Positions 21,291-35,853 of a DNA stretch of 64,000 nucleotides are shown here, piece after piece. Origin of the DNA: Escherichia phage SHEFM2K. The translations under genes were made by a program, and so were the position numbers. The notes beneath the pieces were generated by a model. It saw only the letters and a list, made by a program, of their open reading frames with translations. It was not told the origin of the DNA and did not search any database. Within the stretch, counting starts at the first letter, position 1. The number at the start of each line of letters is the position of its first letter. The DNA lies in sequence record PQ390715.1. One strand, 5' to 3'.

Positions 21291-22400
21291 ATGTTACCTT
21301 TTGGAAGAATGTTAAAGTATGGGAATGTAGCACCTGTACCCAAAAAAATAAAGAAAGTTATTGCAGGATATGATAATTTATATGTACTATATGGTGATGG
21401 ATCGCTATATGGTTGTGGAATCAATAACTATCAACAGTTAAATATTACTGGAACTACTACACAAAATAAATGGGTACTGATTACAAATGGCGTTAATAAT
21501 GCATGGGCTGGTGGATATAATATTTTATATTTTAAAGAAGATAAATTTATAATGCACGGAACTAATGTCTCATTAGGTTTAGGAAATAATACAATTCCAC
21601 TAGGTGGAGTAGATGTAACTTCTTCATTTCCAGATATATCTGATATTAAAATGATATCCATTGGTTTTGATTCAATGCACTATGTTAGTGCTGATGGTAA
21701 AATTGTATATGGAAGAGGTATGAACACAAATGGTTCTGTTGGTTCAGGTAGTACTTACTCACAGAGTACTTTTACTTCAGTACTGAATAATGGCACTAAT
21801 CAGGTTATTGATATATTTGGTAACGTTAATAATACAGTGCTTCTAACGTCAAATGGCGAGCTTCGTGCGTGTGGTACAAGTGCTTATGGTTCCATAGGAA
21901 ATGAAACTGGTAAGTGGACATCGTTTGGTTTAAAATTATCTGGCACTAAAATAATGGGTGGTAATGCGTATAGTACGCTTGCATATACAAATGCGGGAAT
22001 GTACCACACAGGGTGGCAGTTAAATGGGGAACTGGGAAATGGTTTAGATACTAACGTACAGGTATATCCATTTCAATTTAACTCTAAAACAATAGATAGC
22101 AAGATAGATAAAATTGCTAAATCATCATCTGGGTCATATGTTAATATGTACTCAACAACAGAAGGAAAGATATATACTACAGGTGCATATGGTAAAAACG
22201 GCTCAACTACTGCATTGAATTTGTTCACCAATACACTAACACTTGAAAATTACAATCCAGATGCCGCAGCGTTGTATACGTGCACAAACTTCAGTGTTGT
22301 ATATGATGGTAATGAAACTATTGCTGTAAGTGGTAGTCCTACATATGTACCAGGTGACGTTGCCGCAAATAGATGGACCACAATTCCATTACCCAAGTAA
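21291..22400 (+). CDS. RCC1-like beta-propeller repeat protein, array member 1 (369 aa)
   Basis: ORF track; N-term MLPFGRMLKYGNVAP; repeated G.N..GQLG.G-type motifs. Confidence 0.8.
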   Translation: MLPFGRMLKYGNVAPVPKKIKKVIAGYDNLYVLYGDGSLYGCGINNYQQLNITGTTTQNKWVLITNGVNNAWAGGYNILYFKEDKFIMHGTNVSLGLGNNTIPLGGVDVTSSFPDISDIKMISIGFDSMHYVSADGKIVYGRGMNTNGSVGSGSTYSQSTFTSVLNNGTNQVIDIFGNVNNTVLLTSNGELRACGTSAYGSIGNETGKWTSFGLKLSGTKIMGGNAYSTLAYTNAGMYHTGWQLNGELGNGLDTNVQVYPFQFNSKTIDSKIDKIAKSSSGSYVNMYSTTEGKIYTTGAYGKNGSTTALNLFTNTLTLENYNPDAAALYTCTNFSVVYDGNETIAVSGSPTYVPGDVAANRWTTIPLPK

Positions 22401-22403
22401 TAC

Positions 22404-22454
22404 GATGCCAGTACTTGATACTGGCTTTCTTATTTGTATTAAATATAGTATAAT
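22404..22454 (+). promoter_or_regulatory. Intergenic cassette: hairpin GCCAGTACTTGATACTGGC + T-tract, then -35-less promoter-like TATAGTATAAT + SD
   Basis: Near-identical cassette upstream of 9 array genes. Confidence 0.55.
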
Positions 22455-22469
22455 GATAAAGGAGGAACT

Positions 22470-23648
22470 ATGTTACCTTTTGGAAGAATGTTGAATTATG
22501 GAAATGAAGCACCGGGCGTACCAACACCAAAAGATTTCTTTTTGGATGTATCATCCGGCAAACCTACTATGTTGATGCTTTTGGATAACGGCGAAGTATG
22601 GGGTTGTAGTAATGATGGACAACTATTAGGTTTAAACACTACCGCGTCAGCATACGGTAAGCCATACTTTGTTATGGAAAATGTTAAGTTAATGTTCGCG
22701 TCAGTGTGGGGGACATTACTTATCACTAACGATAATAAAGTGAAGTACACTGGTAGACAAACCATGTTTAATGGTTCATCTAATTATTGGAGTACTTTTC
22801 AAGATTTTACAACGAAGTACACGACTGTTGGTATTGACATAAGTACTATAGAAAAAGTTGGATTCAATACTGGTACATTATTCCTACGCACAACTAATGG
22901 TGATTTATGGGGTCATGGAAATAACGCTAATGGTTATTTCGGAAAAGGAAATACCGTGGCGAATTACACACCAACCAAGATCAAGACTAATACATTAGAT
23001 TTTTGGTTAACTAATGGGAATGCAATTGTACAAACTGGCCCTAAAGAATTCTATGCTACTGGTGATAATTATTATTATCAAATGGGTGTTACGACTACTG
23101 GTAATATAACAACATGGACACAGATTTTTAAGGACGCTACTGATGATCCTGAGTTTGAATATAATGCAATGCGAACAAGTCAAGCAACATTAATACTTTA
23201 CGGTAAAGGAACTACATTCTACGCAAGTGGGAGAAACTATATGAGTTCATGGGGTGTATCTGGAGCACCAGTGGATGTTAATACTACACTATATAAAGGT
23301 ACGTTACCATTTGTACCCGGGGATTTAACATATTTTTATGCTGGTCGAGAACAAGCATATTGGACTAACTTAATCATTGATACTAATGGAGTTCTGTACA
23401 TATCTGGAACAAAAGATGGGGGTGGTGGTTCAAATGCACCTATATTTGAAGTATTACCAACCCCAAGTAGTGCAGTTGGATTCAAATGTGGTACAGCAAC
23501 ACGTTCTTATGCTATAATGGATTGTACTGGCAATCAATTTATGTACGCACGTGGTACAGCTTTGTCAGACCCTGCTGGCTTTACACCAATGAGTACACCA
23601 TTAAATCATACATGGACACACATAACAGATTTTAAATTTAACCGATAA
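22470..23648 (+). CDS. RCC1-like repeat protein, array member 2 (392 aa)
   Basis: ORF track; conserved N-terminus; RCC1-like motifs. Confidence 0.8.
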   Translation: MLPFGRMLNYGNEAPGVPTPKDFFLDVSSGKPTMLMLLDNGEVWGCSNDGQLLGLNTTASAYGKPYFVMENVKLMFASVWGTLLITNDNKVKYTGRQTMFNGSSNYWSTFQDFTTKYTTVGIDISTIEKVGFNTGTLFLRTTNGDLWGHGNNANGYFGKGNTVANYTPTKIKTNTLDFWLTNGNAIVQTGPKEFYATGDNYYYQMGVTTTGNITTWTQIFKDATDDPEFEYNAMRTSQATLILYGKGTTFYASGRNYMSSWGVSGAPVDVNTTLYKGTLPFVPGDLTYFYAGREQAYWTNLIIDTNGVLYISGTKDGGGGSNAPIFEVLPTPSSAVGFKCGTATRSYAIMDCTGNQFMYARGTALSDPAGFTPMSTPLNHTWTHITDFKFNR

Positions 23649-23651
23649 TAT

Positions 23652-33458: not shown

Positions 33459-34628
33459 ATGTTACCTTTTGGAAGAATGTTAAAGTACGGAAATATTAAA
33501 CCAACTCTTCCTGAAATAAAGAAATTGGATGGTAGTCAATTACATGTCGGATTACTTTATAGTACAGGGAATATGTACATGCGTGGTTCTGGTTCGAACT
33601 ATAAATTAGGTACAGGGGATGCTAGTGATGTATTAGGTGGTTGGGTACATGTACCCTATGAAGTTGATGATTTTTGGGCGTGTGTATCCGGTACATTAAT
33701 AAAGACTGTTGATAATAAGTTATATTGTGCCGGACTATACATGGGTGGATATTTTGGGGCTAGTGGTTCATATGTTAACTGGACTGAAGTAACTTCATTA
33801 TTTGTAGGTATTGACGTGTCGCAAATAAAGAATATAGAATTTACGTCAGCGGGTACTTCCGGTAGTACACTAATATTGATGTTAGATGGTCGTTTATATG
33901 GGTTCGGTATGAACAGTAGATCTGAGTTAGGTGTTAATAACAAAGTTGTATCTCCCATTCTTATAGATACTGGGGTAAGTGCAATAGGAGCACATAAGTT
34001 AGGCGGTTCATCGTTCCATTATATAAAAGGCGGTAAGTACTACAGATGTGGAACATCGGTTGGTAGTAATATTGGAAGTTCTTCTTTAACTACTTTTACG
34101 GTATTGAGTATTCCTGATAACGTTATATCTATGCAAATATTATATGACAACGTACAGTTATTATGTTTAGGAAGTTCTGGATATAGTATCTATATGGCTG
34201 GTTCTAATGATTATGGTGGAAGAGGTGTTGGTGGTTCTACTGTTTACACTACATTCAGGAAAATAGATCTTACAGGATTTGGTGTTGTTCCCAGTGAAAT
34301 ACTATTTGAAAATGCCGGAAATGGTTATGTTAATATATCAACTGATAGTACTGGAGTATATACATGTGGTGGTGGGGCTGGTGTTAATGGTTTAGGTAGA
34401 CCAACTGATGTGATACCAAGTTCACAGTTGGGTTCGGTTCAGTTCAGTACTGGAGTAGTACCATCAAATATAAGTCGCGTGTATTCACAGAGTTCGAGTT
34501 CTGTTATATATTGTATAGTCAATAATGAATTGTACTGGGCTGGGAGTAATTCATATTTTACTGATCAAACCACAAATACTGGTACACAATTTTCATTTAT
34601 TAAAATGAAGGATATGCCTTCTGCTTAG
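33459..34628 (+). CDS. RCC1-like repeat protein, array member 11 (389 aa)
   Basis: ORF track; GGAG SD directly after member 10, no cassette. Confidence 0.8.
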   Translation: MLPFGRMLKYGNIKPTLPEIKKLDGSQLHVGLLYSTGNMYMRGSGSNYKLGTGDASDVLGGWVHVPYEVDDFWACVSGTLIKTVDNKLYCAGLYMGGYFGASGSYVNWTEVTSLFVGIDVSQIKNIEFTSAGTSGSTLILMLDGRLYGFGMNSRSELGVNNKVVSPILIDTGVSAIGAHKLGGSSFHYIKGGKYYRCGTSVGSNIGSSSLTTFTVLSIPDNVISMQILYDNVQLLCLGSSGYSIYMAGSNDYGGRGVGGSTVYTTFRKIDLTGFGVVPSEILFENAGNGYVNISTDSTGVYTCGGGAGVNGLGRPTDVIPSSQLGSVQFSTGVVPSNISRVYSQSSSSVIYCIVNNELYWAGSNSYFTDQTTNTGTQFSFIKMKDMPSA

Positions 34629-34634
34629 ATTTTA

Positions 34635-34690
34635 TGCCAGTGCCTTGTACTGGCATTTTTTTGTCCTAAATATAATAACGATTTACATTT
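34635..34690 (+). promoter_or_regulatory. Diverged array cassette (hairpin GCCAGTGCCTTGTACTGGC + TATAAT)
   Basis: Same architecture, diverged sequence. Confidence 0.45.
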
Positions 34691-34700
34691 GGAGGATACA

Positions 34701-35853
34701 ATGCTACCCTTTGGAAGAATTATCACATCATCAAAAAAGAACATACAACCTTCTGTTACAAAAATAGCTTCATCTGATACAACAGTTTTTGCCCTTATGT
34801 CAGATGGTACGTTGTACAGTAGAGGCTCTCAAGAGTTTGGGCAAATGGGTATAGGTAATATTATAACACAAACCAAATGGGTTTTGTGCAATACAAACGT
34901 AGAAGATCTATGGGTTCGGGTATGAGTCAACATTAATTAAAAAGAAAGATAATACGATGTGGTATGCTGGAAATGGTGCATCATTCGGTTTATCAACTGA
35001 TAAGTCAACAACGTGGGCTTCTGCAAAGATAGTGTTTGATAGAATAACAGCACTTGGAAAAACAATAAAACAAATTGCAGTTAGTGCAGGTGCATTAAGC
35101 GTATTATGTACAGACAACACGATATGGAATACGGGTTATGGTAGTTATGGACAACTGGGAAATGGTAGAAGTACCGATTCACTTTCATCATTTGTACAAG
35201 GAACATTACCTACTGGAGTAACACCATCCAAAATACTGGCAAATTTTCTTATGCAAGGATTTATTGGAACCGATGGGAGATTGTATTATACTGGTGCAAT
35301 ATCAGGCGTAGGTACAACCGACATGACGTTATATTCAAAGTACACGTTATGTTCTCAAATAACTAATACCTATACAGTAAAAGATTATACAACAAACTCA
35401 AGTTACTTTGCTTTTGCTATAGCAAATAATAATAGTACTAATAAATTATTTGCATATCATGGTGGTGGTCAATACTTTGGTCAGTTAGCAAATGGTTCTA
35501 CATCACAAACATATATTTCGTTAAGACAAACAACACAAGCACCAGGTGATATAATAAGAAGCAGTGTAGGTTATTCATATTTTTCTAATCATATTATAAC
35601 TTCATTGGGTGTTTACGCAACTGGTAATAACACAGGCGATAACGCAGGTCAATTGGGTATAGGTACACAAACAGATGTGTCGGCCTATACCAAATGTGTA
35701 CTACCAATAGAGATGAATATGAATAACGTATATGTTACAGCAACTTTATACAGAACTTACTTAACCGATGGTATACAAATTTACAGTACTGGACAATATA
35801 TTACAGACGGTGGAGTTGCCAGTACTGTATTTGTCAAAGATTCACCATTTTAG
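34701..35853 (+). pseudogene. RCC1-like array member 12 (diverged N-term MLPFGRIITS), interrupted by a +1 frameshift near 34915-34925
   Basis: Listed ORFs 34689-34925 and 34957-35853 are consecutive parts of one paralog in different frames. Confidence 0.5.

Follow-up and report, generated by a model that had tools for sequence, protein, structure and literature searches.

A portable N-terminal tag on a shuffled array of RCC1-like propeller genes in a jumbo coliphage, probably a virion-incorporation signal

Escherichia phage SHEFM2K is a jumbo coliphage of the Asteriusvirus PBECO4/121Q/slurp01 group. The window analysed here, a whole stretch of 64,000 nucleotides of its genome (PQ390715.1), carries 12 consecutive paralogous genes, all on the plus strand from 21291 to 35853, whose products combine a short, nearly constant N-terminal tag with a highly divergent RCC1-like propeller. 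The tag is probably a signal for loading these modules onto or into the virion. We consider moderately likely the broader proposal that it loads interchangeable binding modules, preferably displayed on the particle surface, and that recombination at conserved junctions shuffles the corresponding cassettes. We infer the causal role of the tag in incorporation, as well as the particle site, binding targets and expression timing of the tagged proteins.

A preliminary description of this DNA had proposed a plus-strand array of 12 RCC1-like genes, and it is borne out at exactly that span. Intact paralogs (numbered g01 to g12 in order) are 369-400 aa long, and their alignment displays the loosely conserved C-terminal ending proposed earlier, aromatic-x-x-hydrophobic-x-(L/M/I)P. 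The extensive divergence reported after the N-terminus also stands (pairwise identity 18-37%), but frameshifts had gone unremarked in three of the 12 copies: g08 at about 29930, g10 at about 33030 within an AAAA run and g12 at about 34870. The breaks in g08 and g12 are also present in slurp01, and that in g10 is common to phAPEC6 and 121Q. Since three of the 12 copies are broken, single members are dispensable.

The first gene, g01 (21291-22400, 369 aa), encodes the tag MLPFGRMLKYGNVAP followed by an RCC1-like propeller and is 62% identical to the virion-detected phAPEC6 gp009. Its upstream region (21258-21290) contains a promoter-like box, GTAAATATGATATAAT, with one mismatch to the box repeated within the array, and then an SD site. 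The g01/g02 junction (22401-22469) holds a hairpin with a T-run (22407-22425), the box TTAAATATAGTATAAT (22439-22454) and an SD site, and leads into g02 (22470-23648, 392 aa, tag MLPFGRMLNYGNEAP), an RCC1-like propeller whose body is joined to other flavours of the tag in slurp01, Turkey3 and EJP2. Beyond the next junction (23649-23719; hairpin 23653-23675, box 23687-23702, SD site) lies the propeller gene g03 (23720-24922, 400 aa, tag MLPFGRMVKYANIAP), the best RCC1-like domain match among the paralogs (E=1e-29). It is separated from g04 (24931-26040, 369 aa, also a tagged RCC1-like propeller) by 8 nt with an SD site only, so that g04 is probably co-transcribed with g03. Three further tagged RCC1-like propellers are encoded by g05 (26111-27250, 379 aa, tag MLPFARMVKYGNIAP), g06 (27322-28470, 382 aa, tag MLPFVRMMNYGNIAP) and g07 (28542-29732, 396 aa, tag MLPFVRMMNYGNIVP). 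Each is preceded by a complete junction with an SD site, at 26041-26110 (hairpin 26047-26065, box 26079-26094 in a TATAAC variant), 27251-27321 (hairpin 27257-27275 by RNA folding, box 27289-27304) and 28471-28541 (hairpin 28477-28495, box 28509-28524), respectively.

The junction at 29733-29804 (hairpin 29739-29759, box 29772-29787, again the TATAAC variant, SD site) precedes the frameshifted g08 (29805-30984), in which a tagged N-terminal ORF of 59 aa (29805-29984) is followed, in a different frame, by a body that is RCC1-like by Pfam and reaches 30984. After the junction at 30985-31055 (hairpin 30992-31010, box 31024-31039, SD site) comes g09 (31056-32198, 380 aa, tag MLPFGRMVKYGNIAP), 85% identical to phAPEC6 gp005, and after that at 32199-32268 (hairpin 32205-32223, box 32237-32252, SD site) the frameshifted g10 (32269-33448). 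The first ORF of g10 (32269-33078) gives a 269-aa product, 99% identical to phAPEC6 gp007 and sharing its truncation, and the remaining blades lie in the +1 frame, to 33448. Another gap with an SD site only, of 10 nt, separates it from g11 (33459-34628, 389 aa, tag MLPFGRMLKYGNIKP), an RCC1-like propeller 99.5% identical to phAPEC6 gp010. The g11/g12 junction (34629-34700) is decayed, with a retained hairpin (34634-34656) and a degenerate promoter-like box, and g12 (34701-35853; body ORF 34957-35853) is itself a decaying member.

All 12 members match RCC1-like Pfam models, and a profile of the family hits the RCC1-like domain of HERC2, of solved structure, at E=6e-37. The AlphaFold2 model of g09 (pLDDT 89.4, pTM 0.87) predicts a seven-blade RCC1-like propeller that Foldseek places on UVR8, RPGR, HERC2 and RCC1 at TM ~0.75; the model of g11 is all-beta with a pLDDT of 67.5. 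The propeller fold suggested in the preliminary description is thus upheld. The phage proteins share with eukaryotic RCC1-like domains (RCC1, HERC2 RLDs, RPGR, UVR8) the seven-blade propeller and repeats of the G-x-N-x-x-G-Q-L-G type (profile E 1e-22 to 1e-37, TM 0.6-0.79), but identity is only ~15-20%, and they differ in the absence of a Ran/nucleosome context, in being unusually charge-poor, in their extra N-terminal tag and in their association with virions. Their bodies, of ~40 kDa and near-neutral (pI 5.1 to 8.8), contain ~6% D+E, ~6% K+R and 44-48% S/T/N/G/Y. The comparison of strands with loops among paralogs revealed no prominent hypervariable blade: contrary to the expected division into conserved and hypervariable blades, divergence outside the tag is even (27% identity in strands, 27% in loops).

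The core of the tag is M-[LI]-P-F-x-R-x-x-x-Y-G-N, usually continued by (I/V)-A-P, for a length of 12-15 residues. The near-invariant N-terminus noticed earlier holds for 11 of the 12 paralogs, whose first 15 residues start MLPF(G/A/V)RM..Y(G/A)N, but not for g12, whose tag has decayed to MLPFGRIITSSKK and includes synonymous CTA and CCC codons. In both AlphaFold2 models (g09 and g11) pLDDT is low over residues 1-20, which places the tag outside the propeller as a flexible extension. No variation occurs at P3, F4 or N12 among 118 tagged genes and hardly any at Y10 and G11; R6 was limited to R/K by the pattern used to gather these genes. Each conserved residue uses two or three synonymous codons, which shows selection at the protein level. 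The tag is 87% identical among paralogs, against 27% for the body, and 77% identical among g09 orthologs, against 71% for the body; it follows the genome and not the body it is attached to. The same body type carries different tag flavours across phages, and Turkey3 has one block of VRMFD tags and one of ARMVK tags. Moreover, in L002, EJP2, Turkey3 and CBB the tag is found on bodies of the Kelch propeller, Laminin_G_3, Gly_rich_2 and phrog_6011 ('virion structural protein') types, and in GAP32 on one RCC1-like and one phrog_6011-type body. In all, four or five body types other than RCC1-like carry it in relatives.

The constant N-terminal module of the preliminary description is indeed constant, but it extends 5' of the ATG, since it makes up the 3' portion of a ~120 bp junction that is conserved at the DNA level (-75 to +45 relative to the ATG). 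Mean pairwise nucleotide identity is 85% in the upstream part, rises to 97% for codons 1-7, drops to 77% for codons 8-15 and is ~40% on either side of the junction. The parts follow one another in most genes as terminator hairpin, promoter-like box, SD site and tag. Nine hairpins were observed for 0.13 expected, and the box occurs in 8 copies with at most one mismatch. This box is a TATAAT without -35 element and only partially matches the (T)ATAAATA late consensus that precedes head and baseplate genes in phAPEC6. Comparison with related genomes, recommended in the preliminary description, did reveal cassette turnover: the cassettes stand in a scrambled order across six coliphages, content differs between phages as well, and in most phages compared collinearity over the array falls below that of a flank of the same length. 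A close parallel is provided by the PeSL (promoter-early stem-loop) cassettes of T4-type phages, in which a conserved stem-loop terminator and promoter stand between variable genes in hyperplastic regions and mark the edges of insertions, deletions and replacements (PMC2839356, PMC4122927). In contrast to PeSLs, the present repeat does not stop at the SD site but also covers the first 15 codons, no sigma-70 -35 element accompanies its promoter, whose TAAATA core is similar to the late consensus, and all cassettes encode a single superfamily of tagged proteins.

Virion proteomes show a strong enrichment of tagged proteins. In CBB, whose virions were CsCl-purified, seven of nine are among the 55 virion proteins of 554 ORFs (hypergeometric P=2e-6), and in phAPEC6 mass spectrometry identified six of 12 (gp003, gp005, gp006, gp007, gp009 and gp010; P=9e-4), the other half of the copies going undetected. 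GAP32 gp001 was detected as well. Support is low, at 1-7 unique peptides (3 for phAPEC6 gp007), and the text-form files of the JP4 virion proteome nowhere mention RCC proteins. The array is not the undescribed system it was first taken for: RCC1 multigene arrays of the same family and locus are annotated in GenBank in other Asteriusviruses (phAPEC6 gp001-010, 121Q gp234-248, PBECO4 'regulator of chromosome condensation'), and their multiple copies and virion mass-spectrometry matches are discussed in the phAPEC6 and CBB papers. These proteins were, however, treated there solely as RCC1 or "DNA condensation proteins", and the CBB supplement gives only 549~553 and 536~537 as paralogs. In the literature searched we found no published account of a tag common to Kelch, LamG, Gly-rich and phrog_6011 bodies, of the cassette junction or of the scrambling. 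The tag and its portability, the virion enrichment of the proteins that carry it and the self-contained, scrambled cassettes appear undescribed.

The virion matches fit equally well an internal location, in which the tag would be a capsid-targeting sequence (CTS) as in T4 internal proteins, the bodies entering the head by way of the scaffold core and leaving it together with the DNA, to serve early on as binders that target the host or counter its defences. In T4 a conserved N-terminal peptide of ~10 residues on the otherwise divergent IPI, IPII and IPIII suffices for head incorporation, even of foreign proteins, and T4 relatives possess variable arrays of proteins with CTS-like sequences, the repertoire differing among related phages (PMC9026906). 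The present phage group has a prohead core protease of the T4 type and a late sigma factor resembling gp55, and an inner body, tied by the phAPEC6 authors to the RCC1 proteins, is visible in phAPEC6 heads. The tag is, however, unrelated in sequence to the T4 CTS and lacks a conserved (L/I)-x-E prohead-protease site, the first Glu of g01 coming no earlier than about residue 83. Furthermore, T4 internal proteins are small and basic, whereas the tagged proteins are large, near-neutral, rigid propellers or lectin folds. The surface is favoured by the lectin-like, Kelch and Gly-rich bodies, together with the RCC1-like propellers on named tail fibres, and we regard internal cargo as rather unlikely.

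Less probable still is a tag devoid of targeting function, its constancy a side effect of junctions evolving in concert (gene conversion, translation-initiation constraints) and the proteins being abundant intracellular binders of host proteins that co-purify with virions. Codons 1-7, so similar at the DNA level within the window, adjoin the conserved promoter and SD region, and local gene conversion or initiation constraints do add to the apparent constancy of the tag; tag flavours act as lineage markers, as in the two Turkey3 blocks, and peptide counts are low. But the tag is retained in L002, L003 and CBB, where most tagged genes are spaced by an SD site alone, its core residues stay the same in several distinct phage lineages while their codons change synonymously, and unrelated folds keep it; the CBB detections in CsCl-purified particles make contamination unlikely.

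The DNA-condensation label of the literature is itself unlikely, and a role in organising the 350-kb genome or building the inner body, put forward by the phAPEC6 authors for RCC1 proteins found in virions, restated in the BF17 paper and consistent with the RCC1-like fold and the GenBank and PHROGs annotation, is very improbable: the homology concerns the fold and not the function of RCC1, which requires Ran and nucleosomes, absent from bacteria; the K+R content and pI of the bodies speak against it; CBB packages 356 kb without an RCC1-like homologue (the CBB paper credits GAP32 with one, GAP_001); a core packaging function is unexpected in a scrambled, partly pseudogenised, strain-variable array; and lectin and Kelch bodies bear the same tag.

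We therefore favour the tag as a virion-loading signal, for which there are precedents in the 10-residue T4 CTS (PMC9026906) and in the N-terminal docking peptide of KP32 RBP2 (PMC13352976). In KP32 gp38-type secondary RBPs and branched RBP systems a short N-terminal peptide is necessary for virion incorporation (PMC13352976) and accepts unrelated distal domains (PMC13352976; PMC6872550). Those RBPs, present once or twice per phage, are trimeric tailspikes or depolymerases that dock on a T4gp10-like branching domain, whereas the tagged proteins number 12-16 or more per phage and are apparently monomeric propellers or lectins with a hypothetical docking partner. RCC1-like propellers occur on named tail fibres of the Pseudomonas phages PollyC and Littlefix, one of them with a T7 tail-fibre N-terminal domain. 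In these fibres and in PVP-SE1 gp40, whose functions are known from database names alone, the distal propeller has the same fold (TM to query 0.67-0.70) but is fused to a long fibre or T7-type anchor in a polypeptide of 600-1365 aa, unlike the free-standing 40-kDa propeller with only a 15-residue tag. The lectin and propeller folds of the other tagged bodies are a further pointer to the surface, although arguments from composition and domain type are soft.

The architecture first proposed, a constant anchor joined to a diversified binder, is thereby supported by a tag that lies outside the propeller, recurs on other folds and is enriched in virions. Each cassette would encode a two-part protein, a portable N-terminal tag and a globular binding domain, the latter always a seven-blade, S/T/N/G/Y-rich and charge-poor RCC1-like propeller in the present window. 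The tag would be a peptide for docking or targeting that a single shared partner recognises, and would load into the particle whichever body comes after it. Homologous recombination at the ~120 bp junction may insert, delete, replace and re-order entire cassettes, leaving decaying copies behind. Each virion would hold several kinds of binding module at low copy, in a mixture particular to the strain, preferably at the surface as auxiliary adhesins on the tail, the capsid or hair-like fibres, with receptor binding as a plausible candidate role for the tagged propellers.

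The window represents Asteriusvirus jumbo coliphage DNA and carries on its plus strand, at 21291-35853, twelve consecutive genes (g01 to g12), in agreement with the span and gene count of the preliminary description. The array is 98.6% identical to that of Escherichia phage vB_Eco_slurp01 across 92% of its length, and PBECO4, 121Q, phAPEC6 and about 30 further phages match it piecewise. Nine genes are intact and code for proteins of 369-400 amino acids; the other three carry frameshifts, located near 29930 in g08, within an AAAA run near 33030 in g10, and near 34870 in g12. As the breaks in g08 and g12 are also present in slurp01, and that in g10 in phAPEC6 and 121Q, they are inherited lesions and not errors of this assembly. 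The split of g10 could mark a young pseudogene, a truncated propeller that is tolerated, or a site of recoding; in this gene (32269-33448), the blades after the break stay open in the +1 frame. Pairwise identity between the paralogs is 18-37%, and g09 used alone as a query retrieved orthologues as distant as 41% identity but few paralogues. Searches of the window revealed no Rfam family, no tRNA and no match to the PADLOC defence models, and the papers on Sharanji, fEgEco12, JP4 and BF17 hold no functional data on these genes.

The assignment of an RCC1-like fold was well founded. All twelve members, frameshift fragments included, match PF25390 with E values of 6e-5 to 1e-29, below the 150-bit cutoff of that family; nine score above the gathering threshold of PF00415 or PF13540, and RCC1-like Pfam models also match the two parts of g10 as well as the N-terminal g12 stub. 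Searched against the PDB, the family profile retrieved the RCC1-like domain (RLD) of HERC2 (E=6e-37), followed by UVR8, RPGR and RCC1 (E=4e-22). The AlphaFold2 model of g09 (pLDDT 89.4, pTM 0.87) is an all-beta propeller spanning residues about 21-375, which Foldseek matched to UVR8 (E=3e-21, TM 0.76/0.79) as well as to RPGR, HERC2 and RCC1; superposition on UVR8, RPGR, the HERC2 RLDs and RCC1 gave TM scores of 0.6-0.79. The model of g11 is likewise all-beta and weaker (pLDDT 67.5). The proteins thus combine the tandem RCC1 repeats (Pfam, all twelve) and the seven-bladed beta-propeller (g09 model) of the RLD superfamily. The mapping of hypervariable blades proposed in the preliminary description found none: the bodies, that is the globular domains, diverge evenly along their length, which does not support a localised hypervariable blade.

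In front of these divergent bodies stands a shared peptide of 12-15 residues, the tag. The first 15 residues are nearly invariant in eleven of the twelve members, so that the claim of a near-invariant N-terminus stands for these and fails for g12, whose tag has decayed to MLPFGRIITSSKK. Residues 1-20 are of low confidence and lie outside the propeller in the models of both g09 and g11. For this reason, and because the tag is also found on bodies that are not propellers, a role as the 'velcro' strand that closes the propeller was ruled out. Distant tagged relatives were gathered through orthologues of g09, GenBank matches and a DNA-pattern scan of IMG/VR; the scan required G at codon 5 and thus undercounts tags with P, S or T at this position, as in CBB. 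The 12-residue core, M-[LI]-P-F-x-(R)-x-x-x-Y-(G/A)-N, is common to RCC1-like, Kelch, LamG, Gly_rich_2 and phrog_6011 bodies. Tagged Kelch propellers are encoded by the relative L002 (at 9070), Turkey3, EJP2 and CBB (CBB_550/552/554), Laminin_G_3 lectin folds by L002 (at 11158) and CBB (CBB_548/551), Gly_rich_2 domains by L002 (at 3411) and Turkey3 (at 16569), and the phrog_6011 'virion structural protein' type by L002 (at 13131), CBB (CBB_549/553) and GAP32 (gp002), with CBB_536/537 forming a further body type. Singleton IMG/VR matches in small contigs were discarded as chance ORFs of 12-31 aa, and a 40-aa tag profile run against a database of 5.8 billion proteins yielded 11 candidates only, all of them tiny fragments.

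Among 118 tagged genes, P3, F4 and N12 never vary, Y10 and G11 hardly do, and R6 was confined to R or K by the search pattern used for collection. Each of P3, F4, R6, Y10, G11 and N12 is encoded by two or three synonymous codons, and the constraint therefore acts on the peptide. Paralogs within one genome share 87% identity over the tag versus 27% over the body; orthologues of g09 share 77% versus 71%, the two parts diverging at a similar rate, and one body type is paired with differing tag flavours in different phages. The homogenisation of tags within genomes is concerted evolution, acting through recombination or through co-evolution with a common partner. In Turkey3 (L005, 3809-21404), two tag flavours are arranged blockwise: MLPFVRMFDYGN predominates in the first ten cassettes and MLPFARMVKYGN in the final six, which suggests that this array is a mosaic from two donor lineages.

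The tag codons belong to a repeated cassette junction. A near-identical element of about 70 nt lies at eight internal gene boundaries and consists, in order, of a hairpin (GCCAGTAC-loop-GTACTGGC), a T-run, a box (TTAAATATAGTATAAT) and an AAGGAGG SD site. Nine such hairpins with a T-run were observed where 0.13 were expected, and eight copies of the box occur with at most one mismatch; the ninth boundary, before g12, has kept the hairpin while its box has decayed, and the box in front of g01 is a variant of its own. Averaged over pairs, nucleotide identity is 85% from -75 to -1, 97% over codons 1-7 and 77% over codons 8-15, and falls to about 40% on both sides of the junction. Both g04 and g11 start 8-10 nt after their predecessor, the gap holding only an SD site, and the predicted transcription units would be g01, g02, g03-g04, g05, g06, g07, g08, g09, g10-g11 and g12.

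No acceptable -35 element was found 16-18 nt upstream of the junction TATAAT. The TAAATA core of the junction partially matches the late consensus, (T)ATAAATA, that precedes head and baseplate genes in phAPEC6, and the junctions of CBB, GAP32, L002 and the further relative L003 retain TAAATAC. Given this late-like core and a gp55-like sigma factor in phAPEC6, late expression of the array cassettes is plausible. In phAPEC6 125001-175000 (L032), (T)ATAAATA, which matches the T4 late-promoter consensus, precedes genes of the major head, portal region and baseplate; phAPEC6 has genes for a late sigma factor resembling gp55 and for a prohead protease resembling gp21, and gp224c has a perfect TTGACA-17-TATAAT promoter. 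Elsewhere in the window, a promoter-like motif, TT(C/T)AGTACTGTATAAT, distinct from the array box, lies upstream of minus-strand genes at 6866, 10488, 11272, 15698 and 44691, and GTAC and AGTACT are generally frequent in intergenic regions.

Comparison with related phages, with body types defined by clustering at 55% identity or above, revealed the turnover of cassettes that had been looked for, in both content and order. The order is A B C D E F G H I J K L in the window and M A B C D E F G H I N K L in slurp01, which has one additional cassette and a different one in the slot of g10. It is scrambled in phAPEC6 (Af E D C Ag G Aa I Ah J A K), 121Q (E D E G Aa F I Ah J A), Turkey3 (F A B C Q R O X Y A Z Aa ...) and EJP2 (O D P F Q R C S A T U V B W). 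Together, these six coliphages have over 30 body types, and copy number varies between 12 and at least 16. The equally long flank 38000-52562 shows much greater collinearity than the array in most of these phages, with a coverage of 84% against 20% in phAPEC6, 84% against 23% in JP4 and 72% against 37% in 121Q.

The junctions have the same composite structure as the PeSL cassettes of T4-type phages, in which a stem-loop terminator and then a promoter lie between genes, and like PeSL repeats they bound insertions, deletions and replacements between related genomes (PMC2839356, PMC4122927). One difference is that the array repeat runs on into coding sequence. The PeSL promoter is a sigma-70 early promoter; that of the array junction, which has a TATAAT without a -35 element and a TAAATA core that is partly late-like, may belong to the sigma-70 or to the late class. 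The cassette junction carries the idea of regulatory repeats as recombination handles beyond the classical T4-type phages and into coding sequence.

The array is flanked by other families of paralogs. Directly upstream and divergently oriented, a second tandem array of about 25 tiny paralogs (59-81 aa) occupies the minus strand at 16384-21187; their N-termini read M(N/H)..KEFY and their C-termini ..LLLIYRY or ..EVLKLISI, and one member tested had no match in Pfam. This array is also present in slurp01 and Turkey3, and its plus-strand GC skew is positive despite the minus-strand genes, unlike the other minus-strand regions of the window. Downstream, at 36538-37643 and beyond on the minus strand, there follow paralogous genes for multi-pass membrane proteins of about 120-140 aa. 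'Putative membrane protein' genes (CBB_539-547) hold the equivalent place, as judged by position, beside the tagged genes of CBB, so that jumbo phages only distantly related to each other appear to share the paired arrangement.

Published proteomes place many tagged proteins in virions. Mass spectrometry of phAPEC6 virions detected gp003, gp005, gp006, gp007, gp009 and gp010 with 1-4 unique peptides each, and all six are tagged array members; gp005 is 85% identical to g09, gp007 99% to g10 and gp010 99.5% to g11. The 30-kDa gp007 has the same 269-aa truncation as g10, and this truncated product was detected with three peptides. Six of the twelve tagged proteins of phAPEC6 are thus in its virion proteome (P=9e-4), and seven of the nine in CBB (CBB_536, 537 and 548-554) are among the 55 proteins of CsCl-purified virions, from 554 ORFs (P=2e-6). 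The relation between tag and virion presence in these two phages is a correlation. GAP32 gp001, also identified by virion mass spectrometry, is both RCC1-like and tagged. The authors of the CBB study gave 549~553 and 536~537 as the only paralogs, and the shared tag is unmentioned in the literature examined on these phages. They also regarded six structural proteins absent from GAP32 as tail-whisker candidates, four of which (CBB_536, 537, 551 and 552; sequences L030/L033) bear the tag.

On balance, the tag is best read as a putative virion-incorporation peptide that would load interchangeable binding modules. Two short N-terminal incorporation peptides have been established experimentally, the 10-residue capsid targeting sequence (CTS) of T4 (PMC9026906) and the docking peptide of KP32 RBP2 (PMC13352976). 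Surface display of the tagged proteins is favoured, because they have few charged residues, are rich in S, T, N, G and Y and have a near-neutral pI, because lectin and propeller folds make up the remaining tagged bodies, and because RCC1-like propellers are borne by proteins that are tail fibres by name, one of them with a T7 tail-fibre N-terminal domain. The tagged bodies, being single-chain propellers or lectin folds, differ from the trimeric tailspikes and fibres of branched RBP systems, in which the virion takes up the protein by means of its N-terminal docking peptide and the partner has a T4gp10-like branching domain.

The same tag could instead be a CTS-like signal that directs the bodies into the head as internal cargo to be ejected into the host, since the T4 CTS is likewise a short conserved N-terminal peptide on unrelated proteins; the mass spectrometry, done on whole virions, fits this location as well. 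We consider this less likely than surface display: the T4 propeptide ends in a prohead-protease site, (L/I)-x-E, whereas no conserved Glu occurs in or just after the array tag, several members having none in their first 30-80 residues, and propellers and lectin folds are unexpected as cargo. The published role in DNA condensation is unlikely, because the proteins are not basic (K+R about 6%, neutral pI, which argues against DNA binding), because CBB packages a genome of similar size without an RCC1-like protein and GAP32 has only one (GAP_001), according to the CBB paper, and because the array is scrambled and partly pseudogenised. RCC1 proper is defined by Ran guanine-nucleotide exchange and nucleosome or DNA binding; neither Ran nor nucleosomes occur in bacteria.

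As an incorporation peptide, the 12-residue tag may, more tentatively, be a general virion-loading signal in Asteriusvirus, CBB/GAP32-type and, putatively, Serratia BF-type jumbo phages. Any domain behind it would then be mounted on or packed into the particle via one common docking site, and a recombining library of cassettes (more than 30 body types, at least five folds) would let each strain display its own mixture of adhesins or effectors, a plug-and-play display so far undescribed. The tagged proteins might also be a component of the enigmatic hair-like fibres of these phages.

The array had been put forward as an undescribed system, and this does not hold for the gene family, its multiplicity or its detection in virions, all already known. 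What appears to be new is the portability of the tag across folds and between several related lineages of jumbo phages, the inclusion of tag codons in the cassette junction and the resulting re-interpretation of the role of the array proteins. These are probably modular virion proteins that dock or are targeted through an N-terminal peptide, and their genes lie in a hyperplastic region of PeSL-like type. If the tag is an incorporation signal, this would correct the 'DNA condensation protein' mis-annotation that is widespread in dozens of jumbo-phage genomes. It would also suggest which proteins might form the hairy appendages, so far unexplained, of phAPEC6 and CBB, and a peptide of 12-15 residues could, as with the T4 CTS and the KP32 peptide, serve to attach foreign proteins to a very large virion or to pack them inside it. 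Finally, it would offer a handle on how the host-interaction repertoire varies among these phages, several of which are candidates for phage therapy.
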